Below, one piece after another: positions 9,448 through 64,000 of a stretch of DNA of 64,000 nt (positions within the stretch are counted from its first letter, which is position 1; every line of letters begins with the position of its first letter). Below the pieces are notes generated by a model that saw only the letters and a program-made list of their open reading frames with translations, searched no databases and was not told the DNA's origin. Source of the DNA: a virus (taxonomy: Duplodnaviria; Caudoviricetes); the IMG/VR virus record IMGVR_UViG_2671180612_000001, positions 1 to 64,000 of that record. One strand, given 5' to 3'. The position numbers and the translations under genes were made by a program.

Positions 9448-10005
9448 ATGAGCGACACAGCCGAACCCAACGAAACGCAAGACACGGGCGTCCCTGCAAT
9501 CCAGGTGCGTCCCCTGATCGACGCCGCCCAGCTCAAGAAGGACATCGCCTACTCGACGACCGATCTGTCGACCGCGATGTCGAACCAGGCGTCCCTGTTC
9601 TCCGACTACGGCGTGATCGCGGCCAAGGCGTCGTTCCAGGTCAACCGCATCGAGACCACGCTCAAGCAGGTCGAGAGCGTCGTCTACCGCAAGCTGCGCG
9701 ACGAGGCGTCCCAGGCGGGCACCAAGATCACCGAGGCGCAGCTCACGGCCAACGTCGCGATCCATCGCCAGGTGCGGGCCGTGAAGGGCGCGCTGAACGA
9801 GGCCAAGCAGATCGAGACGATCGCCAAGCACGCCGTCGAAGCCTTCCGGCACCGGCGCGACATGCTGATCCAGGAGGGCCTGATCTCCCGCGAGGAGATG
9901 AAGGGCGAACTCACCATCCGGCGCAAGAACATCGCCGAGGAAGAATCCAAGACCCAGCGCGACCAGGTGCTCGAGCGCCTGCGTCAGGCCGGCCAGGTCG
10001 ACTGA
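9448..10005 (+). CDS. Coiled-coil protein, possibly UvsY-like recombination mediator
   Basis: Helical ORF in the replication module; operator at 9414-9429; function inferred. Confidence 0.55.
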   Translation: MSDTAEPNETQDTGVPAIQVRPLIDAAQLKKDIAYSTTDLSTAMSNQASLFSDYGVIAAKASFQVNRIETTLKQVESVVYRKLRDEASQAGTKITEAQLTANVAIHRQVRAVKGALNEAKQIETIAKHAVEAFRHRRDMLIQEGLISREEMKGELTIRRKNIAEEESKTQRDQVLERLRQAGQVD

Positions 10006-32574: not shown

Positions 32575-33249
32575 ATGAACGCGCATCACATGCAAAGCAA
32601 CGACGTGCGGGAGGTCGACATCGACACCACCCGTCTGCTTCTTGATCGCCACGGTCGCGAGCGTGTCGGCCGCTACATGCACACCGCAGCCGGAACCAAG
32701 TGGTTCCCGTTCGACGTCCGCGCCGACGAGGTTTCGATCGAGACCATCGCGCACCAGCTCGCCGGCCAGAACCGCTGGCAGGGCGCGGTCCAGCACCGCA
32801 AGTTCAAGACGCGGATCTTCTACTCGGTCGCCGAGCACTCGGTCTATTGCTCGCATGAGGTGCCCGACGAGTTCGCCCTCGAGGCGCTCATGCACGACGC
32901 CTCGGAAGCCTACATCGGCGACCTCATCCGGCCGCTGAAATACGATCCGTCCTTCCGCGCGCCCTTCAAGGTCGTCGAGGACGCGCACGAGAAGGCGATC
33001 GCCGAGCGCTTCGGTCTCGCCTGGCCCTGGCCGAAGTGGGTGAAGCGCGCCGACAACCTGCTCTGCGCGGCCGAGAGCCGTCAGATCGTCGTCCGCTCGC
33101 CGGACGAGGAATGGGAGAGCGGCAAGCTCCAGGACGAGAGCGAGTGGGCCGACGTGGAGATCGAGATGCTCCACCCCTACCAGGCGAAGGAGGCGTTCCT
33201 CATGCGCTTCCACGAACTCTATGACATCCACCGGAACGTCCGGCGATGA
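32575..33249 (+). CDS. HD-domain phosphohydrolase (YfdR/5'-deoxynucleotidase-like)
   Basis: IAHQLA; YSVAEHSV; LMHDASEAYIGDLIRPLK. Confidence 0.85.
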   Translation: MNAHHMQSNDVREVDIDTTRLLLDRHGRERVGRYMHTAAGTKWFPFDVRADEVSIETIAHQLAGQNRWQGAVQHRKFKTRIFYSVAEHSVYCSHEVPDEFALEALMHDASEAYIGDLIRPLKYDPSFRAPFKVVEDAHEKAIAERFGLAWPWPKWVKRADNLLCAAESRQIVVRSPDEEWESGKLQDESEWADVEIEMLHPYQAKEAFLMRFHELYDIHRNVRR

Positions 33250-35775: not shown

Positions 35776-35991
35776 ATGAGCTACACCGAGCATTTCGGCG
35801 AAGGCCGGCCTGTGCCCATCGACGCCTTCGTGAAGACGCTGCGCATGGACCGCTCCGAGACCGGCTGGGAAGGCGCCTTCATGGTCGACTGGTCCTGGAT
35901 AGGTCACGACACCGACGTCATCGGCTACAAGGTGGCCGGGCCGCTCCGGACGATCTGGCTCTCCCTGCGCCTCAAGTTCGGCGATCGATGA
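35776..35991 (+). CDS. Hypothetical protein
   Basis: AGGAG RBS; operator at 35733-35748. Confidence 0.55.
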   Translation: MSYTEHFGEGRPVPIDAFVKTLRMDRSETGWEGAFMVDWSWIGHDTDVIGYKVAGPLRTIWLSLRLKFGDR

Positions 35992-36569
35992 ACGCGCCCT
36001 TCAACAAGGACGCCTGGATCCTCGACGCCATCGCGTGCGGCTACATCAGCCCGAAGCGCGACGGCACGATCATGCGCCGCAAGTCTGCCTCGCGCGACGG
36101 CTCCAACTTGAGCGCCGAGTGGGCGCTGGTGAAGCAGCAGACACACAAGGCGACGGGCCGCGTCTATTTCAACATGACCTGGAAGGGCCTCACCAAGTCC
36201 GTCCTCGTCAACCGTGTGATCGCGCTCCGCTTCCTCCCGAACCCCGACAACCTGCCCCAGGTCAACCACGTCGATGGCGTGAAGGCCCACAACTACCTCT
36301 ACCAGCCGACGCCCGAGCTCGTCGCCAAGTGGGGCAAGTTCCAGCTCGAATGGTCCTCCGGTCAGGACAACGAGAAGCACGCGCACCGCACGGGACTCAA
36401 GACCGGCCGCGGCACCTCAAACGCCAACAACAAACTCTCGGTCGAGCAGGTGCTCAAGATCCGCGAGCTCGGCCCAACGACGCCGATGGATGACCTGATC
36501 GCCTTCTTCGGCGTCGGGCGCACCACGATCGCCAACATCCTTCGCAGACGCACCTGGACGCACGTCTAA
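35988..36569 (+). CDS. HNH endonuclease-like protein with C-terminal HTH
   Basis: FLPNPDNLPQVNHVDGVKAHN...LEW...N..HA. Confidence 0.8.
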   Translation: MNAPFNKDAWILDAIACGYISPKRDGTIMRRKSASRDGSNLSAEWALVKQQTHKATGRVYFNMTWKGLTKSVLVNRVIALRFLPNPDNLPQVNHVDGVKAHNYLYQPTPELVAKWGKFQLEWSSGQDNEKHAHRTGLKTGRGTSNANNKLSVEQVLKIRELGPTTPMDDLIAFFGVGRTTIANILRRRTWTHV

Positions 36570-41455: not shown

Positions 41456-42004
41456 ATGACGAACGACACGAACGCGAACGCCGCCGAGACCGAGTTCGAG
41501 GTCACGGTCGCGGCCGACTACCGGCTCTTCGCGACGACGAAGGTCAAGGCGCCGAGCAAGGAAGCAGCCCTTGAGATTCTCAAGCGCCAGGCCGCGGCGA
41601 AGGTGAATTTCATCGCGGCCGACATGCCCGACTGGCGCTTCGGCGACGGCGAGCTGATCGGCGGGATCACGCTCGTCGCGATGGATCACCAGGAGGAGAC
41701 CGTCCTCGAAGACGTGGAGCTCCTGGACGAGGACGCCGGCCGGGCGAGCTTCGAGCAGCTTCAGAGCATGGTGGACACGATCGCCGGCCTGAAGTCCTCG
41801 CACGACCTCATCCGCTACCCGCTGACCGATGACGAGCCGGCCGAGCTCGCCATCATCGCCGAGCAGCACGAGCACGACACCGGCGACGGCCTCGATCTCC
41901 TCGACACGCTGATCGTCGAGGCGCGCAAGTTCTCGATCGTCCGGCCGGATGGCTACGGCGGTCCTGCGGACTTCGAGGAGCCCGAGGCCGAAACCACGAG
42001 CTGA
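41456..42004 (+). CDS. Acidic hypothetical protein
   Basis: AGGAG RBS; operator at 41416-41431. Confidence 0.65.
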   Translation: MTNDTNANAAETEFEVTVAADYRLFATTKVKAPSKEAALEILKRQAAAKVNFIAADMPDWRFGDGELIGGITLVAMDHQEETVLEDVELLDEDAGRASFEQLQSMVDTIAGLKSSHDLIRYPLTDDEPAELAIIAEQHEHDTGDGLDLLDTLIVEARKFSIVRPDGYGGPADFEEPEAETTS

Positions 42005-42053
42005 CAGTTCGAAATCCATCAATCCGGAAATCTCGAAATCTGGAAATCGCGAA

Positions 42054-43610
42054 ATGAACGCCATTGTCCCGCGCGCGACGATCGAGGAGATCGTCGGCCA
42101 CCGTAACCGAGCGGTCGCGCTCTACACCGACGCCTACGAGCAGGCGGTGCTCGCCGACGATCTCGTCAAGAAGGCGCGCGAGGCGTGGTCCGCGGCGGCT
42201 CCCTCGCGCACTGCCTATCACGGCCAGCACGAAGAGGTTGCCGCCTTCAACGCGCTCGTCTCCATCCCGGACATGAGCCAATACGTCCGCACGGCGACCA
42301 GGCTGATCGACGCCGGCATCTGGGCGTCCATCATCGAGCGCACGGACCTCGAGCGCCTCATGGACAAGGAGGCCAAGGACAAGTTGCGCGAGCAGATGCG
42401 CTACGTCCCGGAGCGGGTCAGCCATCGCACCGGCGAGATCATCAACCAGGACGAGATCGACAAGGGCCTGCCGCCCGTCACCGTCGAGAACGTCGCGGCG
42501 ACCCTCGAGCACTTCATGCTGGACGCCGAGACGATCTGGCGCCGGGGCATCGCCAACGCCTTCGCCAAGCTCGACCGGCGCTTCCGCTCGCACGACGGCT
42601 GGAAGATCGGCTCGCGCGTGATCCTGACCCGCTGCTTCAACGATTGGGGCTCCTGGAGCTCCTATTCCAACGAGCGCGAGACCCTGATCGACATCGAGCG
42701 GATCTTCACGATCATGGACGAGGGCGTCACCAAGGCGACCTATGCGACGTCCATCGGGCAGATCGACCAGGAGCGCAAAGGCGTCCACGCGCCGGCGCAG
42801 ACCGAGGTCGACACGACCTACTTCAAGATCCGCATCTTCAAGAACGGGAACGCGCACCTCTGGATGAAGCGCGACGACCTAGTCGAGAAGGTGAACAAGC
42901 TGCTCGGCGAGTATTATGGCGACGCGATCGGCGACCACGAGAACGTGCCGACGGACGAGGACGTCCTCAACAACCCGAAGACCTCGCTCGCCAAGAATAT
43001 GGGCTTCTTCCCGACGCCCGTCGCGGTCGGCGAGCGCGCGATCGGCAACGCCAAGCTCTACGCCAACAAGGACGGCCCGCCGCTGCGCATCCTCGAGCCG
43101 TCGGCAGGCGAGGGGAACATCGCCAAGCTCCTGGCCCGGCCGCTGACGCTGGAGTCCAAGTGGGAGTGGGACGAGAAGGCGCGCGAGCGTGTCGAGATCG
43201 TGCTGGCGTCGCAAAAGCCCATCGTCCATGTCGTCGAGCTCCATCCCGGCCGGGCGAACGAGCTGAAAGGGCAGGGGCTCTACGAGAAGGTCGTCCAGAA
43301 CGACTTCCTCCTGGTGCAGCCGCACCCGTCCGCGCTCTACGACCGGATCGTCATGAACCCGCCGTTCGACCGGGATCGCGACATCGATCACGTCTACCAC
43401 GCGCTCAAGTTCCTCAAGGAGGACGGGATCCTCGTCTCGGTCATGTCGGCCGGCGTCGAGTTCCGGACCACGAAGAAGGCGATCGCGTTCCGGGAGCTCG
43501 TCGAGAAGCGGGGAGGGTGGTTCGAGGATCTGCCCGACCGCTCATTCGCCGAGAGCGGGACCAACATCAACACGGTGCTTTGCATCATCGGTCGCAAGAC
43601 CCGTTGGTAG
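42054..43610 (+). CDS. DUF4942-like domain fused to an N6-adenine DNA methyltransferase
   Basis: YFKIRIFKNGNAHL; FFPTP; motif I ILEPSAGEG; motif IV MNPPF. Confidence 0.85.
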   Translation: MNAIVPRATIEEIVGHRNRAVALYTDAYEQAVLADDLVKKAREAWSAAAPSRTAYHGQHEEVAAFNALVSIPDMSQYVRTATRLIDAGIWASIIERTDLERLMDKEAKDKLREQMRYVPERVSHRTGEIINQDEIDKGLPPVTVENVAATLEHFMLDAETIWRRGIANAFAKLDRRFRSHDGWKIGSRVILTRCFNDWGSWSSYSNERETLIDIERIFTIMDEGVTKATYATSIGQIDQERKGVHAPAQTEVDTTYFKIRIFKNGNAHLWMKRDDLVEKVNKLLGEYYGDAIGDHENVPTDEDVLNNPKTSLAKNMGFFPTPVAVGERAIGNAKLYANKDGPPLRILEPSAGEGNIAKLLARPLTLESKWEWDEKARERVEIVLASQKPIVHVVELHPGRANELKGQGLYEKVVQNDFLLVQPHPSALYDRIVMNPPFDRDRDIDHVYHALKFLKEDGILVSVMSAGVEFRTTKKAIAFRELVEKRGGWFEDLPDRSFAESGTNINTVLCIIGRKTRW

Positions 43611-53643: not shown

Positions 53644-53743
53644 AAAACGGTTGCGGGAAGATCGCAGGAACAAATTCCTGTGGACGCACATCGACTCGCA
53701 TCCCGACCAGGGGTCGTCTATATTCAGCATCAGGAGAGCAATC

Positions 53744-54127
53744 ATGAGCGCAGAAGAGAAGCCAAACCTCGGGAACCGTCGTCGTGGCCGCATCGGCAAT
53801 GAGATCACGGGTCCGCGTGGCGCCGCCGCGGTGATCGGCACCAAGGACGGCCAGGTTTCGCCGCGCACCTACGTCGTTGAGACGCGCGACCTCAATGCCG
53901 GCCCGCGCATCGTGGTTGAAGGGACGTCCCGTCACCTAGCGATGGACCCGTATCCGCCCGAGAAGATGGACCCGCAGTCCTCCAAGCTGATGGCCGCTAT
54001 CTTCGGCGAGAAGGAAGCGCAGACCACGCAGCGCGTGGCGCGCGCCGATGACGACCAGGTGCGCTCGGCCGCGAAGCGCCTCCTCAAGAAGCGCATGGGC
54101 CTCATGACGGCGCTCGCCCACCGCTGA
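53744..54127 (+). CDS. Putative antitoxin for Doc
   Basis: Immediately upstream of doc with TGATG coupling; C-terminal amphipathic helix. Confidence 0.6.
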   Translation: MSAEEKPNLGNRRRGRIGNEITGPRGAAAVIGTKDGQVSPRTYVVETRDLNAGPRIVVEGTSRHLAMDPYPPEKMDPQSSKLMAAIFGEKEAQTTQRVARADDDQVRSAAKRLLKKRMGLMTALAHR

Positions 54128-54552
54128 TGATCTTCCTCACTGTCGAACAGGTCATCGGGGCTCACGACATGATCCTCGAGGCGACCGGCATAGGTGTGCC
54201 CGGCGTCAAGGATGCCAACACGCTCGCATCGGGCGTCGACCGGGCCGAGACCCGCGCCTATTACAACGAAAGCGCTGACGCGGCTTCCCTGGCCGCGGCA
54301 GTGTGCTTCGGCATTGCCAAGGCGCATGGATTCAACGACGCCAACAAGCGCACCGCGGCCTTCTGCTGCGAACTCTTCCTGAACCTCAATGGGCTGGATC
54401 TCGATCTCTCGGACAACCTGTTCGAGGACATGATCGTGAACCTCGCGGCCGGCGCGCTCAACGAGGAGGGCTTCGCCAACATGATCCGCCCGCTGCTACG
54501 GCCGGCGAGCGACGACCTGGAAGAGGTCGAGGATCACGCGCCCGGCCCGTGA
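54127..54552 (+). CDS. doc: Doc (Fic family) toxin
   Basis: HGFNDANKRTA Doc motif; MIFLTVEQV...H N-terminus. Confidence 0.9.
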   Translation: MIFLTVEQVIGAHDMILEATGIGVPGVKDANTLASGVDRAETRAYYNESADAASLAAAVCFGIAKAHGFNDANKRTAAFCCELFLNLNGLDLDLSDNLFEDMIVNLAAGALNEEGFANMIRPLLRPASDDLEEVEDHAPGP

Positions 54553-55346: not shown

Positions 55347-56732
55347 TCAGGCGGCAATCAGCGCCATGTTGAGGACGTCGATCGTGCCGCCGATCGTCCT
55401 GCCGTTCAGCGCCCGCGCGCCGAGAATGATGCGGGGCGTTGCCGCCGTCAGCACGAAGGCCGGGGTCAGCATCAGGCCCGGCCCCACGCTCGCCGGCAGG
55501 TTGCCGGACGGGTTGTCGTTCGCCGAGCGGTCCGCCGCGTGGGCGTCGATGTAGCTCATATCCGCGACGCCGCCCGAATAGACGGACGTATTCGGGTTGA
55601 TGCTCGGGCTGATCGCCTCGACGTTCTGGACGCCCGACCAGCCGTCGAACTCCACTGCGAGGCGCACCCGGTCGCCCACCGAGCGGCCGGAGAGGTTCAT
55701 CAGGAGGAGTGCGAACTCGGCGTTCGACATCATCGTCCCGCCAAGCACGATGCGCTGGACCGGACGCCCGGTGTTCGGTCCCGTCACCTTCGAATAGGCG
55801 CGCGTGTGGCCTGTGTCCGCACCGTGGCCGCCGATCCATCCGGACGCGACCGTGCCGCTGCCTCCCGTGCCTGGCGTCCCGCCGCTCGAATCCAGCGCAG
55901 GGTTCGAACTTCGACTGCCGCTCGGATTGTAGACTGCATCGAAGCTGTCGGTGTTCGTCATAGCGGTGAGGCCAGCCGAGATTGGGAAGCGAGCCTGGAA
56001 CACCGGGAGAAGACGAAGAGCGCGCTGATACGCGCCAAGGCCCGTTGTGTGCAGAGGCGCGGCCGCGACACCGCCCGCCCGGCTTGTCACCATACCATCG
56101 AGAGCGCGCCCATCGCCGGAAGCAGGGTTCGCATAGCCCGGCTCCATATCGACCACGCAGACGCCGGGCTTGCCTCGGTAGATCTCGCGCATAGCTCGAC
56201 GGACGTGAAGACGGGCACGGTTCATGTTGGCGTTCGGAAAGACGCTGCCGCTGCTGTCACCGCCAGCCGAGGGGGTCTCCAGGATCAGAAACCGTCCTGC
56301 GGCGCGGCAGAGCTGATAGGCAGTTTCGATCGCCCCAAGTTCCTCGGATACGACGTTCGGATTGTTAGCGAGGAAGCCATTGATCGAGGACGGCATAACG
56401 ATCGTATCGGCGTCGTCTTTTGCCAGAATGCCACGAAGGCGTGCAACGATCTCGGGCGTCTTCTGTCCGACGATGCCATAGTTGCCGGTGCCGTCGAAAT
56501 CGAAGGACTGGTGCGTGAGGTAGCGCAACCAGTTGAGCTCCCCGACTACAAGATAGCGATTGCCGCTCCCTCCCGCCGCACGGTTCCAAACGCCGCTCCC
56601 GGACGAGAACGTGTGCCGGAACATGAAGCTGTCTCCGACAACAATCACTCGTCGGTTGCGGGCGGCGTCCAGCGCGAGTGAAGAGACGCCGCTACCGGAA
56701 TTGCCGCCGATGAAAAGACCAGTGCCGATCAT
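55347..56732 (-). CDS. SGNH/GDSL esterase-like protein
   Basis: VVGDSF block I; NYGIVGQ; PLH; lower-GC codon usage. Confidence 0.7.
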   Translation of the reverse strand: MIGTGLFIGGNSGSGVSSLALDAARNRRVIVVGDSFMFRHTFSSGSGVWNRAAGGSGNRYLVVGELNWLRYLTHQSFDFDGTGNYGIVGQKTPEIVARLRGILAKDDADTIVMPSSINGFLANNPNVVSEELGAIETAYQLCRAAGRFLILETPSAGGDSSGSVFPNANMNRARLHVRRAMREIYRGKPGVCVVDMEPGYANPASGDGRALDGMVTSRAGGVAAAPLHTTGLGAYQRALRLLPVFQARFPISAGLTAMTNTDSFDAVYNPSGSRSSNPALDSSGGTPGTGGSGTVASGWIGGHGADTGHTRAYSKVTGPNTGRPVQRIVLGGTMMSNAEFALLLMNLSGRSVGDRVRLAVEFDGWSGVQNVEAISPSINPNTSVYSGGVADMSYIDAHAADRSANDNPSGNLPASVGPGLMLTPAFVLTAATPRIILGARALNGRTIGGTIDVLNMALIAA

Positions 56733-56733
56733 G

Positions 56734-58371
56734 TCAGCGGTTCCACGCCGGCCGCGGGCTCGCCACCTTGCGGAAGACGAGCGGCGAGACCTTGATCTGG
56801 AACGCCTTGGACGCCTCGCGGCGCCAGGACATCGCGAGGTTGAAGAGGTCCATGTAGGAGCTCACGCCCGTCGCAGCGTCGAGACCCTCCATCTTGTGCG
56901 GCAGGGTGCGCAGCAGGAGCTTCTCACCGTTGCGGAACGGGATCGGCACGCTGTTCTCCGCGCCCCGACGGTTGACGCCGCCCGTGACCGGCATCGTCAG
57001 CCCGCCGCGGTAGCGGAGCTGCAAGGACGCGCCGACGAAAATCGTCTCCTCGGACAGAAGCTCGACCTCGCAGAGCGCTTCCATCCAGTCGCCGGCGACG
57101 ATCCCGAGGGCCGAGTAGCTCGGCATGACCGGCGTGAGCGACAGCGAGTTGACGCCAGCAGCCGGAGCGGCCGGGGTGATGGTGAAGACCTGCTTCTCGG
57201 CAACGCCGGCCTCGATCACCTCCTTCGAGGCGACGATCGCTTCGGTCTGGCCGGCACCGCGGTTCACCGTGACGCTCGTTGCGACGCTGCCGGTGATCCC
57301 GCCGTTCTTGGTGCCGTTGGTGCCGAGGAACCCGCCCGTCGCGAGCAGATTGCCGGCGCGCGAACGATCCACGAAATCGCCTGCCGTCACCATGGAGCGC
57401 AGCACGTCGAGGAGCATCCCCGGTTCGGAGTTGCGGATCCAGTGACCGACCGACGTCATGTGGATGCCGTCCTCGAGGATCGGCTGGCCGGACGCGATCG
57501 CGTCCCGGATGAGCTTGCGATCATCGACGACCTTCACGCCCTCGCGAGAGCCGAGCGTCGCGCACCAGGCGCCGAAGTTTTCGAGCGTCACATGGCGCGG
57601 ATCGCCGACCTTCCAGTCGGTGCGCGGGGTCGGCATGAGGACCACGGCCCAGATGCCGGCATAGCGGAGCATGGTGAGGATGCGATCGAGCCGGAGCTTC
57701 AAGGTCTCGAGCGTGATCGGGGTCTTGCCGTCGGCCTGGCGCCGGCTGTTCACGTCGTTGGTGCCGATGTCCACGACCACGATGTCGGGCCGCATGTCGA
57801 TCGTGCGCTTCAGGCGCTCGTAGCCGCCGTTGAGGTCGTCACCGCCCAGACCTGCCTGCGATCCGGCGAAGCCCTTGGCGTCGCCCGCGCGGTTCTGCGC
57901 ATAGTCCTTATCGAACCAGGAGTTGACGTTGAAGCGCCCGTCCATGGACTGAAGAAGGCCCATGTCGCCGAACGCCGCGCCGGTGTTGATGTCGATGCGG
58001 TTGTGGAGCGCCGGCGGGACCGCGTTGCCGAAAGCGTAGCCCGAGCGCGCGATGAAGCTGTGGCCGAGACCCATGACCTTGGCGCCGGTCTTCAGTGGAA
58101 GAGCGGGAAGAGTGCGCGGGGTCGCGAAAGGAGCGCTGGTCGGCAGAACCTCTGCGGTGAGAGACGCGCCGTCGGGATCGGCGGGAAGGGTAAGCTTCCA
58201 GAAGCCGAACTCGTCGGCATGAATCGTTCCGGCGAGCGAGGCGCCGGCCTTGACCGTCACCGGCACGCCAGCACGCGCCCGGCCCGAGACGACGAACGTC
58301 TTGACGTCATAGGCGTCGATCGTGGGAACCGTATCAGCGGGGATCTTCGAGTAGGGACCGTATCCGGACAT
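56734..58371 (-). CDS. SGNH/GDSL esterase with N-terminal Ig-like domain
   Basis: GLGHSF; IGTND; DGIH; N-terminal VSGRA...ADEFGFW. Confidence 0.75.
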   Translation of the reverse strand: MSGYGPYSKIPADTVPTIDAYDVKTFVVSGRARAGVPVTVKAGASLAGTIHADEFGFWKLTLPADPDGASLTAEVLPTSAPFATPRTLPALPLKTGAKVMGLGHSFIARSGYAFGNAVPPALHNRIDINTGAAFGDMGLLQSMDGRFNVNSWFDKDYAQNRAGDAKGFAGSQAGLGGDDLNGGYERLKRTIDMRPDIVVVDIGTNDVNSRRQADGKTPITLETLKLRLDRILTMLRYAGIWAVVLMPTPRTDWKVGDPRHVTLENFGAWCATLGSREGVKVVDDRKLIRDAIASGQPILEDGIHMTSVGHWIRNSEPGMLLDVLRSMVTAGDFVDRSRAGNLLATGGFLGTNGTKNGGITGSVATSVTVNRGAGQTEAIVASKEVIEAGVAEKQVFTITPAAPAAGVNSLSLTPVMPSYSALGIVAGDWMEALCEVELLSEETIFVGASLQLRYRGGLTMPVTGGVNRRGAENSVPIPFRNGEKLLLRTLPHKMEGLDAATGVSSYMDLFNLAMSWRREASKAFQIKVSPLVFRKVASPRPAWNR

Positions 58372-58374
58372 CGA

Positions 58375-58653
58375 TCAGCCCTTCGTCACGATTGCGGAGC
58401 CCGGCAGACGCTTGGCGCGGGCATAGACGGTCTCGGTGGTGAGAGAGCCGAACGAGAAGGAGCGATGCGCGCCGGCGCCGACCGTATGGGCCTCGTCGTT
58501 CTGCGGATCGGGAAGCTCGCTATCGAGGCGAACGAGGATGTCGGTGCCCTCGCTCTCGACCAGGAGCTCCGAGACGCCAGAGGCAATCTCGGTCCACTCG
58601 TCGCGGGTGAGGTTGAAACGCTTGGTCGGCTGGAAAGCCATGATGAACTCCAT
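58375..58653 (-). CDS. Small beta-rich hypothetical protein
   Basis: First gene of the minus-strand operon. Confidence 0.6.
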   Translation of the reverse strand: MEFIMAFQPTKRFNLTRDEWTEIASGVSELLVESEGTDILVRLDSELPDPQNDEAHTVGAGAHRSFSFGSLTTETVYARAKRLPGSAIVTKG

Positions 58654-58678
58654 TGGGAACAGGAGCCACCATCATAGC

Positions 58679-58694
58679 AAGTAAGCGCTTACTT
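58679..58694. promoter_or_regulatory. Perfect palindromic operator AAGTAAGCGCTTACTT
   Basis: Perfect 16-bp palindrome between divergent genes. Confidence 0.8.
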
Positions 58695-58764
58695 AACCAA
58701 GGGGAACCATATGGAAAGAGGGAAGAAGGCAGGCTGCGCGGGCACCAGAATCAGGAGAGACCCG

Positions 58765-58962
58765 GTGAGCAAAGACCTGGACGAGTTCGATCGCCTTCTC
58801 GCGGCCTACACGGAAGCGGCCTACAAATACGGAGCTGCCGAGGAGAGCAAGAAGATCAAGCGCCTGGCGGACGCATCACAGGACAGGGGCCTGACACACA
58901 ACGAGCTCCGGACATTCGTCGCCGATCGCCTCAAGAGGCTCGAGGAAGCAGAGCGCTACTAG
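58765..58962 (+). CDS. Small hypothetical protein
   Basis: GTG start after AGGAGAG. Confidence 0.5.
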   Translation: MSKDLDEFDRLLAAYTEAAYKYGAAEESKKIKRLADASQDRGLTHNELRTFVADRLKRLEEAERY

Positions 58963-59346
58963 CGCTTCGATTAAGGGCGATGGACCTTTACACAGAGGTC
59001 CAGTCCGACCCAGGCCAGGCTGACAAGCGTAAACCAGGCGGTTGACGCAAACCCTTGTGAGACTGGAAACGACCTTTACGCGAGCTTTACGCCCGGAGAA
59101 CCTGAAACCTCGATTTCGGGAAAGACGTAAACGTCGACCCGATCGCGCGCACAGACCAAGAGAACAGACCAGCGCAGCGCAAAGAGCACCAGAAACGCAC
59201 AGAGCAGCTCACCAGCGCGATCCAAGCGTCTGACGCGCACAGAGAGAGCGAAACACTCGGGAAGCTATTCAGCGACGAACCCTGACGATTTCGAGAAAAC
59301 AGACCAAACGCATACCCCGCAGCATCGAAAACATATCCGAGATCAT

Positions 59347-59475
59347 CACCCATAGAGAGCGACAGAGCACGCAGACCCATAAGAGACGCATGAGCACCGG
59401 AAAGCAGCACAGCACCCATAGAGAGGGACAAGCGCACGCTTCCGGCATGTGAGAGCAGAGAGCACGCATAGAGGG
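59347..59475. repeat. CACCCATAGAGAG-type direct repeats in a T-poor non-coding tract
   Basis: Exact copies at 59347 and 59413; variants near 59375 and 59463. Confidence 0.55.
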
Positions 59476-59731
59476 GCATAGGGGGAGATAGTGAGCTGGT
59501 CTGGTGGGGTTGGCGCCTCGCCACAAACAGCCTCGAACTTCCAGACCGACCACCTCAACCCGAACGCACGCGCCGTAAGCATCCGCTTTCAATCCACACG
59601 CGCTCATGAGACAAACGATCAACGACGCTTGCAGAGCTGGGCGAGCGTTCGTGTGTTGCTGACGGCAACGTCGAGGTCCACCAGCTACCAGCCGGTCTCC
59701 GGCTACCTGATCCGACAACGCCACAATTTCA

Positions 59732-59771
59732 GGGCTCGCTTGATCCTACGGGGTCGGCGAGCCTCTTTTTT
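59732..59771 (+). terminator. Intrinsic terminator with no adjacent CDS
   Basis: GGCTCGCTTGATCC-tacg-GGGTCGGCGAGCC followed by a T run. Confidence 0.65.
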
Positions 59772-60240
59772 GGCTGACGGAAAAATTAGGAACGGAGGCA
59801 CTCCCCTGTAGGAGCATAGCCGTCACGGGGAACCCATGCCCCGCGTCCTTGGAACGCCGATCCCCACACGAGCCGGAGATCCATGGGTTTCCACGGCGCC
59901 CCGTGGTTTTCCGAGGAGGCCCGCGGGGTTTCCCGTGCCGGAGACGTCCGCCCCTAATCGCCTCTCGTCTACATTAGAAACCTGTCTAGTAGATAACTTA
60001 CCTTTGTAGGTGAGTGGCATTTAGCTCCGGCGCGATCCTTTGCACGGAAACGCGCTCACGCACGACGGCTCCCGGCCCGCTCCTAAGTAATTCCTTCCGT
60101 ATATCCGCCCGAAACGCGCCGACAAGACCCCGCGACTACACGCTTCAAGCCCATATCGTGATGCTTCATATTCACAATGCAAGCAACGAAGAAAACAAGA
60201 GCTTGCAAGCGATAGCAACGCACACACAAGGGTTTATCAA

Positions 60241-61110
60241 ATGTCGAAGCGCACCGCGAAGAACACCGCCGCCCAGATCGAGAACGTCGTCCTCGAGGGC
60301 GAGATCATCGCTCCGGTCGTCGAGCAGATCACCGAGACCAACGAGCCCACGGAAGCCGAGCTCGACGCCATCGAGACCGCCGAGGTCCAGTCCGAAGCCT
60401 ACCAGGCCCAGGCGTCCGAGATCGACGAGGTCAACCCGGACCAGGCACCGGCAGGCGACGAGCCCGAGCTCCTCACCGACGAGCCGGAGCAGAAGACGCT
60501 CGCCCAGATGATCGAGGGCATCGAGCGCGACCACGCCGTCGCCATGCAGCACCACATCGCCGCGGAGATCGACGACCGCATGGACTACGAGAGCGACAAG
60601 GGGAACGAGACGATCCAGCGCTCCTTGAAGAGCTCCCGCGCGAAGATGACCACCGACCTCCTCGCCGCCTACGCCTTTGCCGCGACGAGCGTCGACCCGT
60701 CGGTCTTCAACGTCGGACGCGCCTCGACGAACCGCTACAACGTCTACGCCATCGACAAGGTCGCGGACCTGGCGCGCTCGCTCGCCTCGGGGCACTTCAT
60801 GAAGAACGCCATCAACCGCGCTGTGTGCCGCTCGCTCTTCACGTTCCGCCACTCCGGCGAGCGCTTCACGATGGAGATCGCCAAGGCAGCGTGCTCCGAC
60901 AAGATCCGCGTGTCGCCGGCGATCTCGCGCCATCTGATCCGTCACACGGTCTCGGCGTCGACCGCGCCCACCCAGGCGTCGTCCACCATGCAGGCCCTCG
61001 AGACGCTCGGCATCGTCAAGAACGTCGGCACCGCCCGCGGCGCCGTCTACGAGCTGACCGACACGGCGCAGGCGCGCGCCCTCGAGGAGCTCTGCACGAA
61101 GGCAGCGTAA
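60241..61110 (+). CDS. Hypothetical protein: acidic N-terminus plus conserved domain paralogous to 63096-63692
   Basis: Typical codon usage; NVYAIDK, AKAAC, STAPTQASSTMQAL; hairpin terminator at about 61122-61144. Confidence 0.8.
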   Translation: MSKRTAKNTAAQIENVVLEGEIIAPVVEQITETNEPTEAELDAIETAEVQSEAYQAQASEIDEVNPDQAPAGDEPELLTDEPEQKTLAQMIEGIERDHAVAMQHHIAAEIDDRMDYESDKGNETIQRSLKSSRAKMTTDLLAAYAFAATSVDPSVFNVGRASTNRYNVYAIDKVADLARSLASGHFMKNAINRAVCRSLFTFRHSGERFTMEIAKAACSDKIRVSPAISRHLIRHTVSASTAPTQASSTMQALETLGIVKNVGTARGAVYELTDTAQARALEELCTKAA

Positions 61111-61322
61111 GGGAGAGGAGGGAAAGGTGCTTCGGCGCCTTTTCTTTGCGCCTGGCTCGCGGGGCGGTTTGGTATGGCTGGGACTAAATGGGAGCCGCCC
61201 TGTGTCGCGGGGTTTTTAGGAACGGGGCGCTCCCCTGTGTAGGCGAGGACACCGTCGGGCCGGCGCGGTAGACAGAGGAAAGCCGTGGGTGCCCACGGGA
61301 GCCGCCGAGCCGGAGGAATGCC

Positions 61323-61541
61323 ATGGAACTGATCCTCGACATGCAGGCAGAGGAAGGGGAATCGCAGCAGGAGTTGGACGCTCTCATCACCCTGGCCTTC
61401 ATTTACAAGCTGAAGGTCAAGACGGAAGGAGGCGGGAAAGCAGAGCGCCCCTTCGCACGGGTTCATGGGGTAATCGACCCTGCCGTCTTGCATCGGATCC
61501 TGTCGGAGATGCAGCCGGACCCGAAGCCTGAAAGCCCCTGA
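61323..61541 (+). CDS. Hypothetical protein
   Basis: GGAGG RBS. Confidence 0.45.
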   Translation: MELILDMQAEEGESQQELDALITLAFIYKLKVKTEGGGKAERPFARVHGVIDPAVLHRILSEMQPDPKPESP

Positions 61542-61613
61542 ACAAGCGTCTGTGACCCCATAGCGAGCAATGCGACTCTCATCGTGTCAGCAACACGAGA
61601 GCGAGACATCGCC

Positions 61614-61862
61614 ATGCAGATCGCACAAGCTCCCCAGACGCCCGCCGAGATCGCTGCCCTCCGGATCTCCCTCGACTTCCTGTCGTTCCAGCAGGGCCAC
61701 TTCGAGCCCTACAACCCCAAGCGCGTCGCGCGCACCATCGGCGAGATCCGGCGCCGGCGCGCCCTCGAGCTCCAGACCCAGCGTGCCGCGCACCTCATCA
61801 AGCGAATGTGCATGGGACTGGTCCTAGTCCTGGCAGGCGCAGGCGTGGTCTCTCTCCTCTAG
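61614..61862 (+). CDS. Hypothetical protein with C-terminal TM segment
   Basis: Preceded by the TCAGCAACAC leader motif. Confidence 0.55.
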   Translation: MQIAQAPQTPAEIAALRISLDFLSFQQGHFEPYNPKRVARTIGEIRRRRALELQTQRAAHLIKRMCMGLVLVLAGAGVVSLL

Positions 61863-62144
61863 GCGCCTGTCACAACCTGCAGGCGCTCAACGCGGGCCAG
61901 GCGAGTCACCCAACAGCTCGACCTGGTCCGCACCCGTCCAGGCCCGTCCAGGTCCAGTAAGGCCAGGCACGGGTCTTTTCGCGTCAGGCTGCGCCCCGCG
62001 GGCCTCCTCGGCGGCTCCCGGCCGAGCTCTTCCCCACCAGACACCTCTCGACCGCGCTCAACGTGCCGTCGCTGCACGCTTATAGCCCGTAAGTCGCTGA
62101 TTTATATTCATAATTGTCAGCAACACGAAACGAGAGAGTTTCAC

Positions 62145-62483
62145 ATGACCCGCACTGCTTCGCTCAACGCTTCCGCCTCGATCGTCGCTCGCTTCGCCGA
62201 TGCCATCGAGCTTGCCGATGCGTTCAAGGTCGATCATGTGCCCGCCAACATCGACGCCGACCTGTTCAAGCGCTCGTCCGAGGGAACGCTGCGCTCCGCT
62301 GGCGACCGCTTCCGGCTCGCGATCCAGCATTCCGGACTGTCGCCCGACGACATGCCTGCTATTCGTGACCAGGGGATGCAGCTCGTCGAGGAGCGCAAGC
62401 GCATTCGCCGGGAAGAAGCCGCTCACCGTGCCGCCAAGCGTGAAGCCGCGCTCGCGAGCCGGGAAGAGCGCGAATACGCTTAG
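62145..62483 (+). CDS. Hypothetical protein
   Basis: AT-rich upstream region and TCAGCAACAC leader motif. Confidence 0.65.
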   Translation: MTRTASLNASASIVARFADAIELADAFKVDHVPANIDADLFKRSSEGTLRSAGDRFRLAIQHSGLSPDDMPAIRDQGMQLVEERKRIRREEAAHRAAKREAALASREEREYA

Positions 62484-62823
62484 ATCCAGCCTAGCGGAGA
62501 GCGTCGCGTCACAGCGGCGCTTTCTTGTGGGCTGGGCGAGCGGGACGGGTCGGGGCGGAGACGGATCAAGGGGGCGGGGAGGGGACGCGCCTGCCTCGAG
62601 GAATTTTGGAACGGCTGGGCTAAATGGGACTCGGGGAAACGACTGCGGGGCGTCGTTTCCCCTTGTTGCCGCCGGCCCACCTCCGACTGCCCCGTGGGTG
62701 CCCGCGGCGAATACCGTGCCAACGGAAATTAGGAACGGGGAGGAAAGGACGTGGGCGCCCAAGATCCGGACGGGGATGGGCCTATGCGGCGCCCCGAGGG
62801 CGCCCGCGGGGCGGGGGCGCGCG

Positions 62824-62942
62824 TAGGACGCCCCGCGACGGGGAGCAAATCACAAAACCGGGGCAACGCGTAGCTGACTACGGGTCAGTCGGGGCGCGCG
62901 ACTAGGACGACGCGCGTCGGGGAGCAAGTCACGAAAGCGGGG
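62824..62942. repeat. Two imperfect 40-bp direct repeats
   Basis: TAGGACG...CGGGGAGCAARTCACRAAA.CGGGG at 62824-62863 and 62903-62942. Confidence 0.65.
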
Positions 62943-63005
62943 CTCACAGGGGCGTGACGCAATTCATTTTCGTTCGTCGCGACTCATTCCTTTTCGTTTT
63001 TGCGT

Positions 63006-63021
63006 AAGTAAGCGCTTGCTT
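63006..63021. promoter_or_regulatory. Palindromic operator copy (AAGTAAGCGCTTGCTT)
   Basis: Upstream of the GG/CC-free gene, near a TATAAA -10-like element. Confidence 0.7.
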
Positions 63022-63095
63022 ATTCATGTGCGTCGTATAAATTCATTTGTGTCGCACACAGACGACATCAGCAACACACAAAGAAAGACACTCAC

Positions 63096-63692
63096 ATGAC
63101 GCAGATCGCTTCTAACGACTTCGCTGCTAAGCTCGCTGCATACGCTGACGCTGCTAAGCTCAACATCGTGACGCGCAAAGACAAAGTGTCTGACGCGAAC
63201 GCTAAGCACTTCGATCGCTCGATCGCGATGCTTGCGAATGAGACGATCGCACAAGCTCTTATCGCTGCTGACGTCGATGCGTCGCGCTACACGTCGCAAG
63301 TCTATGCGTTCAAGAAAGAGAACGCTATTCTTGACTATCTCTTCAATAATAAGACGATGCAGAACTATATCGCAGAGATTTTTGTCAGCGCGTTTCGTAA
63401 GCATCACGTCAAGAACGCAGCGTTGACGAAGAGCGAAGCGAAGCTTGCGCTTAACAAGTCTGCGAAGCTTAGCGAAAGCGAAGCAACGTATATCGTGCAA
63501 CAGTCGAAAATCATCGATGAAAGCACTGTGAACGCGCAGCATAAGACGACGCTAGACGCTTTCGTCAATCTGCGTATGTTCTCGCAAGTCTCGACGTTCG
63601 AAACGCGCGACGCTTACGCAATCAATCTCGAAAGCGACATGACGCAGCGCATGATTGCGCGTCTTAACATCGCTGATATGTTCGCTGCGTAA
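63096..63692 (+). CDS. 198-aa Gly/Pro/Trp-free protein encoded without GG/CC; paralog of 60241-61110
   Basis: Intact ORF with operator, leader motif and terminator hairpin; collinear similarity to the 60241 C-terminal domain. Confidence 0.85.
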   Translation: MTQIASNDFAAKLAAYADAAKLNIVTRKDKVSDANAKHFDRSIAMLANETIAQALIAADVDASRYTSQVYAFKKENAILDYLFNNKTMQNYIAEIFVSAFRKHHVKNAALTKSEAKLALNKSAKLSESEATYIVQQSKIIDESTVNAQHKTTLDAFVNLRMFSQVSTFETRDAYAINLESDMTQRMIARLNIADMFAA

Positions 63693-63708
63693 ATCGACAC
63701 AGACGCTC

Positions 63709-63735
63709 GCTGACGCGCTTCGATAGCGCGTCAGC
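63709..63735 (+). terminator. Hairpin after the GG/CC-free gene
   Basis: GCTGACGCGCT-tcgat-AGCGCGTCAGC perfect 11-bp stem, itself GG/CC-free; no clear U tract. Confidence 0.55.
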
Positions 63736-64000
63736 TACTCGCGAAGCTCTCACGCTCAAACGCTCGCTCTTGAGCTTCTATGACGATCCCAGAGCGTGAG
63801 ACACCCCAGCCACAGCGCGCGACACTCGCCCAATCCCTCCTCGCGCATCGCGTGACATCGGGGACACAGCCCCAGGGGACGACGTGTGCTGGGTGGACAC
63901 ACTCTGTTGCACGGGGACCATGTGGCGGGAAGGACACGAGGTCCTAGAAGCCCCGCCACAGGTCGAAGGGGATGCCTTTTGAGGGCGAGACACTCCCCGG

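Follow-up and report, generated by a model that had tools for sequence, protein, structure and literature searches.

Messenger RNAs (mRNAs) that lack the word ACA survive MazF, and the RegB protein of phage T4 cuts at GGAG. Chlorovirus pairs of a frequently cutting nickase and a methylase (Nt.CviPII/M.CviPII, at CCD) and T4 Alc tell host from viral DNA by two or three letters, or by the state of C, on a single strand. Early-entry DNA is known from the first-step-transfer (pre-early) DNA of phage T5 and from the leading end of T7 with gene 0.3, and we know of no dinucleotide purge described for either phage. Here we describe a gene cassette that contains neither GG nor CC in the virus record IMGVR_UViG_2671180612_000001 (IMG/VR; Duplodnaviria, Caudoviricetes), a 111,560-bp genome of which positions 1 to 64,000 form the window, that is, the whole 64,000-nt stretch under analysis. 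The cassette resembles the messages that escape MazF or RegB in that a whole message lacks a short word and the GG of the Shine-Dalgarno sequence has been removed; however, CC is banned here too, the banned stretch goes past the likely transcript, and an RNase was not found. Nothing like the chlorovirus nickase and methylase or Alc was found here either; those systems protect the entire viral genome through modification and not a single gene that lacks sites.

In the available text of studies on the avoidance of protospacer-adjacent motifs (PAMs) and restriction sites (PMC12174588, PMC4246573), the likeness to the present case lies in the depletion of a short DNA word, presumably as an escape from a reader. 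In the island described here, however, the word is a bare dinucleotide and its depletion is absolute, restricted to one cassette of 0.69-1.53 kb in a genome whose remainder is normal or raised in GG/CC; three amino acids are purged from a protein family, and the depletion is asymmetric between strands where it is relaxed. Equal depletion on both strands holds in the window itself but not in the partly relaxed loci L014, L012 and L017 described below, and depletion across the whole targetable genome was not observed. With T5 and T7 the locus shares a setting, since the cultured relatives B1VFA and V1VFA-S have fixed ends and direct terminal repeats of 3.6-3.9 kb (PMC12509600), a T5 Dmp-like gene is present and the cassette lies in a repeat-rich stretch of low coding density. 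Unlike in T5, the Dmp-like gene (32575-33249) lies 30 kb from the cassette and is missing from the constrained plasmid pAMS5a, and in place of the pre-early set dmp, A1 and A2 the cassette holds only a predicted winged-helix gene. For the leading regions of conjugative plasmids, the available part of PMC13478746, which also asks whether first-entering DNA is shaped by defence systems, reports no consistent depletion of short palindromes and a higher codon adaptation, whereas here codon adaptation has been given up (the codons GCC, ACC and TCC are unused) for motif removal. A literature search, with supplementary files outside its scope, found no description of a GG/CC-free gene or cassette, and the report on the B1VFA and V1VFA-S genomes (PMC12509600), where the terminal repeats are given by length without coordinates, does not mention the island.

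The island and its single gene are as follows:
62990-63788, no strand assigned: GG/CC-free island, the whole cassette from the upstream region to the 3' stem-loops; 0 GG, 0 CC.
63096-63692, plus strand: open reading frame (ORF) of 198 aa (P0001), with no Gly, Pro or Trp; a predicted N-terminal helical part and a predicted C-terminal winged helix.

A dinucleotide count found 0 GG and 0 CC in the 799 nt of the island; the nearest sites are CC dinucleotides that begin at 62989 on one side and at 63788 on the other. The window contains GG or CC at 9,800 positions, and its second-longest GG/CC-free gap is 82 bp, as it is in the whole genome. The local composition (A216, C212, G186, T185; G+C 49.8% versus 64.1% for the window) predicts 99.4 GG plus CC in the island (Poisson P ~7e-44). 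The absence over about 800 bp reported in the initial annotation was therefore exact, with about 99 sites expected, and its genome G+C figure of 68% was corrected to 64%. G and C are retained in the island but never doubled, CG being found 96 times for 49 expected and GC 89 times for 49 (both about twofold enriched); the genome outside the island has 154 GG/CC sites per kb. Only GG and CC are banned, as no other word of three or four letters is missing from 12 pooled islands (11,112 bp). Palindromes are present in the island (CGATCG three times, TCGCGA and AAGCTT twice each, and others); those of 6 bp without GG/CC number 12 for a Markov-1 expectation of 28, a weak and model-dependent difference that was not relied on. 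In the same 12 pooled islands the CcrM-type methylation word GANTC was found 17 times for about 42 expected, hence depleted about 2.5-fold and not banned, and it is missing from 6 of the 12, this genome's island included.

The ban is not limited to codons. In the island ORF, none of the 67 codons that precede a G-starting codon ends in G, compared with 64 of 131 elsewhere (p=3e-15), and none of the 34 that precede a C-starting codon ends in C, compared with 63 of 164 elsewhere (p=8e-7). Before a G-starting codon, Lys, Glu and Gln take their rare A-ending codon every time (8 of 8), compared with 6 of 26 elsewhere; before a C-starting codon, Asp, Asn, His, Tyr, Phe and Ile likewise take the T-ending codon every time (7 of 7), compared with 13 of 55 elsewhere. 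When the codon order was shuffled (n=2,000), the junctions contained a mean of 32.4 GG/CC sites and never fewer than 17, the observed number being 0. The same protein recoded with the codon usage of the genome (500 trials) had a mean of 58.6 GG/CC sites and a minimum of 42. Because the codon junctions also avoid GG and CC, the constraint acts on nucleic acid. The initial annotation had placed it at this level, and not at that of tRNA supply or of the protein, and had extended it to the non-coding leader and the 3' stem-loop; both points were borne out. The loss of Gly, Pro and Trp is a by-product of the GG/CC purge, and the fold does not demand it, since the paralogous neighbour described below has ordinary Gly and Pro.

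To follow the feature across relatives, the protein family was searched among 1.84 billion representatives (E <= 0.001), which gave 18 proteins including the query; their 3,590 residues comprise 2 Gly, 1 Pro and no Trp. The DNA was compared for 20 distinct loci, this window and 19 further ones, from Rhizobium phages, plasmids of about 117 kb of Sinorhizobium, Shinella, Methylobacterium and Ancylobacter, and uncultured contigs. No further loci came from scans with the queries P0014, P0004 and P0009, nor from the first viral scan with A1. The ORF is free of sites in 13 of the 20 loci (the window, L001, L005, L007-L011, L015, L016, L055, L056 and L058) and has a single site in three (L006, L013 and RHEph10). 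Some sites have been regained in L017 (6), L012 (10) and L014 (30), and one locus, the M. oryzae plasmid (L057), is fully relaxed and has 71 sites. None of the relaxed genes is disrupted; 3 Pro have been regained in L014, and 2 Gly and 1 Pro in L057. The absence of GG/CC is thus conserved despite divergence, as the initial annotation had proposed, down to about 25% protein identity.

The islands are 0.69-1.53 kb long, and some hold a second small ORF (L001, V1VFA-S and pAMS5a). Exactly one island is present in each of the 8 complete genomes with the full ban, where the second-longest gap is at most 104 bp, and outside the islands the complete genomes compared have 128-159 GG/CC per kb. The G+C content is lowered to 46-54% in the relatives' islands, and the edges are sharp, with counts per 200 bp that climb from 0 to over 40. 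In every case the cassette is found between a conserved gene of about 290-330 aa and parA, at 11-12 kb from terL. Its orientation varies, this genome and the Methylobacterium plasmids having it one way and the B1VFA type and RHEph10 the other way. In RHEph10 (NC_034248) the family gene lies at 99195-99809 on the minus strand (hmmsearch E 1e-20), and the annotated gp097 (99105-99785, plus strand) is a wrong-strand call.

The three partly relaxed loci revealed that the two halves of the ban are separable. Sense-strand CC is found 28, 10 and 5 times in the ORFs of L014, L012 and L017, respectively, where free recoding would give 49, 37 and 36, and sense-strand GG 2, 0 and 1 times, where 24, 21 and 21 would be expected. 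Avoidance at C junctions has been lost in L014, L012 and L017 (p = 0.69, 0.08 and 0.61) and avoidance at G junctions retained (p = 0.008, 1e-4 and 0.0055). Matched codons before C have C:T counts of 7:3 versus 30:9 elsewhere in L014, 4:4 versus 37:9 in L012 and 4:2 versus 36:10 in L017; Lys, Glu and Gln codons before G end in G in 1/11, 0/11 and 0/6 cases, versus 11/18, 16/23 and 17/26 elsewhere. These loci fall into separate sub-groups, and every one of them has a close relative under the full ban (for L017, the Shinella plasmid); the sense-CC half has lapsed three times. Over the 20 loci, sense GG is avoided in 19 and sense CC banned in 16, and only the M. oryzae plasmid has lost both halves. 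Because three lineages regained only sense CC, the core constraint is a ban on sense-strand GG, that is, on template-strand CC. The initial annotation had claimed a symmetric constraint on double-stranded DNA, which does not agree with these loci. The reading is strand-aware and is therefore not predicted by symmetric readers such as the PAMs of CRISPR systems or palindromic restriction sites; it is predicted by a reader of CC with its strongest effect on the template strand and also by a reader of GG in RNA.

The non-coding parts of the cassette and its flanks contain the following features:
63081-63089, plus strand: purine-rich leader motif AAAGAAAGA without GG, 6 nt before the ATG, at the Shine-Dalgarno position.
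63017-63042, plus strand: possible promoter TTGCTT ... TATAAA with a non-canonical 14-nt spacing, read from the sequence.
63709-63735, plus strand: 11-bp GG/CC-free stem-loop just 3' of the stop codon, part of a larger fold, with no U tract.
61110-62989, no strand assigned: upstream flank, mostly non-coding, rich in G and C runs, with 34 runs of G4+/C4+.
63789-64000, no strand assigned: downstream flank, rich in G/C runs and continuing to about 64050, with 9 runs of G4+/C4+ in 63788-64050.

Similar motifs without GG (AAAGAGA / AGAAAGA) precede the ATG in all 11 loci inspected. Of the 107 other genes of this genome that encode 100 aa or more, 86 have a GG within positions -20 to -1. The leader of the fully relaxed M. 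oryzae plasmid (L057) has not reverted to GGAG. A consensus scan called no sigma-70-type promoter at the cassette, and clearer promoter-like sites are found in relatives (TTGACA-17-TAGATT in L001, TTGACT-16-TAAATT in pAMS5a). The operator named in the initial annotation had to be withdrawn from the description, as it is not shown. As for the terminator hairpin named there, a strong stem-loop does exist (63690-63792 folds at -39.9 kcal/mol, z -4.19, and none of 200 shuffles folds as well), but it lacks a U tract and was not called a terminator by the consensus scan. The ban reaches about 50 nt before the predicted -10-like box in this genome; in pAMS5a it covers about 190 bp, where one CC is found. 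Since it extends upstream of likely promoters, DNA is favoured over RNA as the molecule that is read.

Runs of G4+/C4+ are 5 to 10 times enriched across the island flanks, with a density of 18 per kb in the upstream flank versus 3.6 per kb genome-wide. In bins of 200 bp, GG/CC counts are 39, 55 and 40 before the island and 42 and 32 after it (42 in the first full bin after it), for a genome mean of 30.7 (standard deviation 5.9, maximum 57). A 25-nt direct repeat (GGGGAGCAA.TCAC.AAA.CGGGGC) is located in the upstream flank at 62840-62864 and 62919-62943; these are its only two copies, and none is found elsewhere in the genome or in relatives. In four relatives the sequence GGCATCCCCATC is present as a single copy directly upstream of the cassette promoter (G001:94147, G002:10899, G003:10956 and G004:23717, minus strand). 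It is not present in this genome and may be a boundary or operator element. An Rfam scan of 58000-64000 gave no match, and there are no tRNA genes near the cassette in this genome; in relatives they are present but variable.

The product of the island gene is predicted to be a winged-helix regulator, presumably DNA-binding. An AlphaFold model of P0001 built on an alignment of 18 sequences has a predicted local distance difference test (pLDDT) score of 91.3, and residues 85-198 of the model match winged-helix domains in VIA-align (best Z 9.1, root-mean-square deviation 4.1, 85 residues aligned). Many further winged-helix entries match at Z 7.3-8.8, among them MarR, PadR, H1/H5 and ORC types, and Z values of this range may mean only a common arrangement. 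The likeness to regulators of the MarR, PadR and ArsR types and to linker-histone globular domains thus lies in the modelled fold of residues 85-198; by sequence the protein belongs to none of these families, and its N-terminal helical part was unmatched in the structure comparison. Foldseek against the PDB returned no entry at E <= 0.001 and, elsewhere, two uncharacterised viral proteins. No match above the cut-off was found in Pfam, PHROG or NCBIfam for P0001 or for the 18 members.

A relative of the gene lies upstream in the same genome:
60241-61110, plus strand: normally encoded paralog of 289 aa, whose residues 105-285 align with the whole island protein.

The comparison of the family with this neighbour by hhalign gave a probability of 98.5% and E 4e-15 over 172 columns, BLASTP alone giving E 0.1. 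Homologs of the paralog are present in all relatives examined (G001-G005, RHEph10 and the M. oryzae plasmid). From these alignments, the island gene is taken to be a purged duplicate of a normally encoded gene 2 kb upstream. The initial annotation had suggested a first-expressed anti-defence or antidote gene, which was not supported: the product is predicted to have a winged-helix fold, and its paralog nearby is normally encoded.

Tentatively, and at somewhat less than even chances, we favour a self-contained cassette that is kept free of GG and CC by selection because a reader of CC acts worst on the template strand. This reader would recognise the CC step on one strand, and its effect would be worst where the CC strand is the template of the cassette gene. 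What it does at CC could be to mark the DNA chemically, to nick or deaminate it, or to leave a bound roadblock there, with transcription halted or corrupted as a result; the cassette would then be a "safe" gene, transcribable when DNA containing GG/CC is not. In a more specific form, which is possible yet doubtful, an activity during infection would read bare CC on one strand and make ordinary DNA untranscribable, and the cassette would hold a "safe-mode" regulator gene that can still be expressed. A role in protecting transcription and the nature of the reader are inferences, whereas the ban, its conservation, its action at the level of nucleic acid, its strand asymmetry and the paralogy are shown.

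Several observations weigh against this account of a template-strand CC reader. No reader was found in the phage genomes compared. TGT/DpdA (PF01702) had no match in this genome, whose record is rated 95% complete, and the control matched 14 of 14 genomes; Pfam, PHROG, NCBIfam and PADLOC searches of the ParB-ParB-ABC operon and its neighbours found no known DNA-modifying enzyme. Among 11 complete genomes, the presence of no phage gene follows the ban. The promoter and the transcript ends are predictions. Ordinary methylation of C is not expected to block RNA polymerase, so that methylation alone would be insufficient and the mark would have to be bulky or converted to a break. Finally, L014, L012 and L017 share one cassette orientation, and gene direction is therefore confounded with genome polarity (replication or entry). 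Two candidate readers also failed: the HNH endonuclease (35988-36569) and the Dmp-like deoxynucleoside monophosphate phosphatase are both missing from the relaxed M. oryzae plasmid but also from the constrained pAMS5a.

These candidates came from gene-content comparisons of G002 with G001, of G000 with all relatives, of the Shinella plasmid with G005 and of pAMS5a with the M. oryzae plasmid, for which ORFs were taken from a crude caller that may miss short or atypical genes. The pairwise differentials were empty for both kinds of relaxation. Genes missing from the M. oryzae plasmid and present in at least 4 of 6 relatives include, besides the two just named, RIIA and RIIB. Among the records checked, RIIA is absent only in the relaxed plasmid, a single case, and it was set aside as a reader. 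The AMS5-based differential gave no gene that is missing from the M. oryzae plasmid and present in at least 6 of 7 full-ban genomes. The ParB-ParB-ABC operon was rejected as a "writer", as it has no known modifying domain and the relaxed plasmid has it too (ABC ATPase 75% identical). A protein encoded at 41949-43610 (553 aa; DUF4942, E 1.5e-43; C-terminal part matching methyltransferase-type models) was rejected as a common factor because none of the relatives compared has it. In view of these null comparisons, the reader would be encoded by the host, or be a core phage function present in all genomes, or have been missed by the crude gene calls.

Other explanations of the ban were weighed against the same evidence. 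An RNA-level reader, by which an mRNA without GG (and, less strictly, without CC) would escape a GG-directed RNase or repressor or avoid anti-Shine-Dalgarno pairing, has a minor but real chance of being right. The island corresponds roughly to one transcription unit, sense GG is the core of the ban and a purine motif without GG replaces the Shine-Dalgarno sequence in all loci inspected, in contrast to most other genes. However, the ban extends upstream of likely promoters, a reader of GG in RNA would leave the sense-CC ban of 16 loci unexplained, other phage genes with normal GG-containing leaders would be hit too, no RNase was identified and the leader of the fully relaxed plasmid shows no return to GGAG. 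Self-avoidance, in which the product or its paralog would bind GG/CC-rich DNA and silence or block it, its own gene being kept site-free to remain expressed, appears improbable. It would agree with the predicted winged-helix fold, whose matches include linker-histone and MarR-type domains, with flanks that are rich in G4+/C4+ runs and near the top GG/CC densities of the genome, with the sharp island edges and with the conserved single-copy motif just upstream of the cassette in four relatives. Against it, DNA binding and its specificity are putative, host DNA is equally rich in GG/CC and would be coated too, the strand asymmetry would need an orientation-dependent roadblock, and the fully relaxed plasmid keeps both paralogs intact.

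Escape from a symmetric host reader, such as a CRISPR PAM (type I-F CC or Cas9 NGG) or restriction or phosphorothioate sites containing GG/CC, is very unlikely. GG and CC are both missing in most loci, and PAM depletion has been described, as far as the available text goes, genome-wide in Pseudomonas phages (PMC12174588) and in phages of CRISPR-carrying hosts (PMC4246573). Such a reader would not produce the strand asymmetry; moreover, only about 0.8 kb of 111.6 kb would be protected, so that the genome, at its density of sites outside the island, would still be fully targetable, and palindromes such as CGATCG, TCGCGA and AAGCTT remain in the island. Little more can be said for a mutational footprint, in which a CC-specific cytosine deaminase or similar mutator would have driven the stretch to a target-free state and which we regard as scarcely probable. 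G-to-A changes before G and C-to-T changes before C would fit deamination in a CC context on both strands, deaminases that act on single strands typically leave a strand-specific loss (as in APOBEC3G footprints), and the G+C content of the islands is lowered. Nevertheless, the edges are sharp, the stretch retains its G and C, CG and GC being about twofold enriched, and the ORFs are intact over divergence to about 25% identity. Since transcription exposes the non-template strand, sense CC and not sense GG should have been the core of the ban, and the explanation reduces to the template-strand CC reader with a deaminase in that role, where selection is still involved. An artefact of assembly, synthesis or annotation has practically no chance, as it is refuted by the same feature in 19 further loci, which come from three cultured Rhizobium phages and RHEph10, five finished plasmids or isolate contigs and independent uncultured contigs.

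The genome that carries the cassette is an SSU5/RHEph10-like phage-plasmid of soil alphaproteobacteria. Its phage-plasmid nature, already proposed in the initial annotation, was borne out by TerL, by the core gene families and by plasmid relatives. TerL shares 65% identity with the TerL proteins of Rhizobium phages RHph_N1_15 and RHEph10 and 56% with that of SSU5. The genome encodes CobT/CobS-like proteins, a Pol III alpha-like polymerase, a UvsX-like protein, SbcC, ribonucleotide reductase, RIIA/RIIB, a sigma factor, ParA and RepC, and an operon of two ParB-like proteins and an ABC-type ATPase adjoins the terminase. The core genes it shares (those for TerL, the Pol III alpha-like polymerase, the CobT/CobS-like proteins, RIIA/B, ParA and RepC) and a size of about 110-120 kb place the genome in the SSU5/RHEph10-like group, whose relatives are found as plasmids of about 117 kb in Sinorhizobium, Shinella, Methylobacterium and Rhizobium, and also as an Ancylobacter contig. 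The ends of related contigs overlap by 95-127 bp, which is k-mer sized, and the starts of G002 and G003 are not homologous.

Some further observations were made on the genome. In G004, G005 and G002 there are 1-4 TGA codons within the N-terminal portion of the TerL alignment, most likely because the start of the TerL ORF was called too far upstream. The ABC-type ATPase of the ParB-ParB operon, which has no permease (L002:8004-8651; genome 72004-72651), is the most conserved protein of the region, with 72-75% identity across relatives versus about 60% for TerL. A Doc/Fic-family toxin-like gene is located at 54127-54552 (phrog_577 E 1e-26, Pfam Fic E 2e-11), preceded by an unassigned 158-aa ORF (53651-54127) that could be its partner. 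Two adjoining GDSL-lipase/esterase-like genes (461 and 545 aa; 55347-58371, minus strand) have no tblastn counterpart in the relatives compared.

The feature is real and conserved, and it points to a factor that reads a two-letter step in a strand-dependent way. If such strand-specific dinucleotide reading is true, it would represent an undescribed defence or takeover activity or an undescribed DNA mark; if the "safe-mode" form of the account is true, no shorter sequence word would be known that shapes an entire gene and deprives a protein family of three amino acids. The natural site-free, half-relaxed and fully relaxed alleles, together with the cultured phages B1VFA, V1VFA-S, RHph_X66 and RHEph10, which grow on laboratory Rhizobium strains, provide a direct handle on the reader. 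The family is also a rare case in which a constraint at the DNA level strips Gly, Pro and Trp from proteins encoded beside a normally encoded paralog, which makes it of interest for protein evolution and design.

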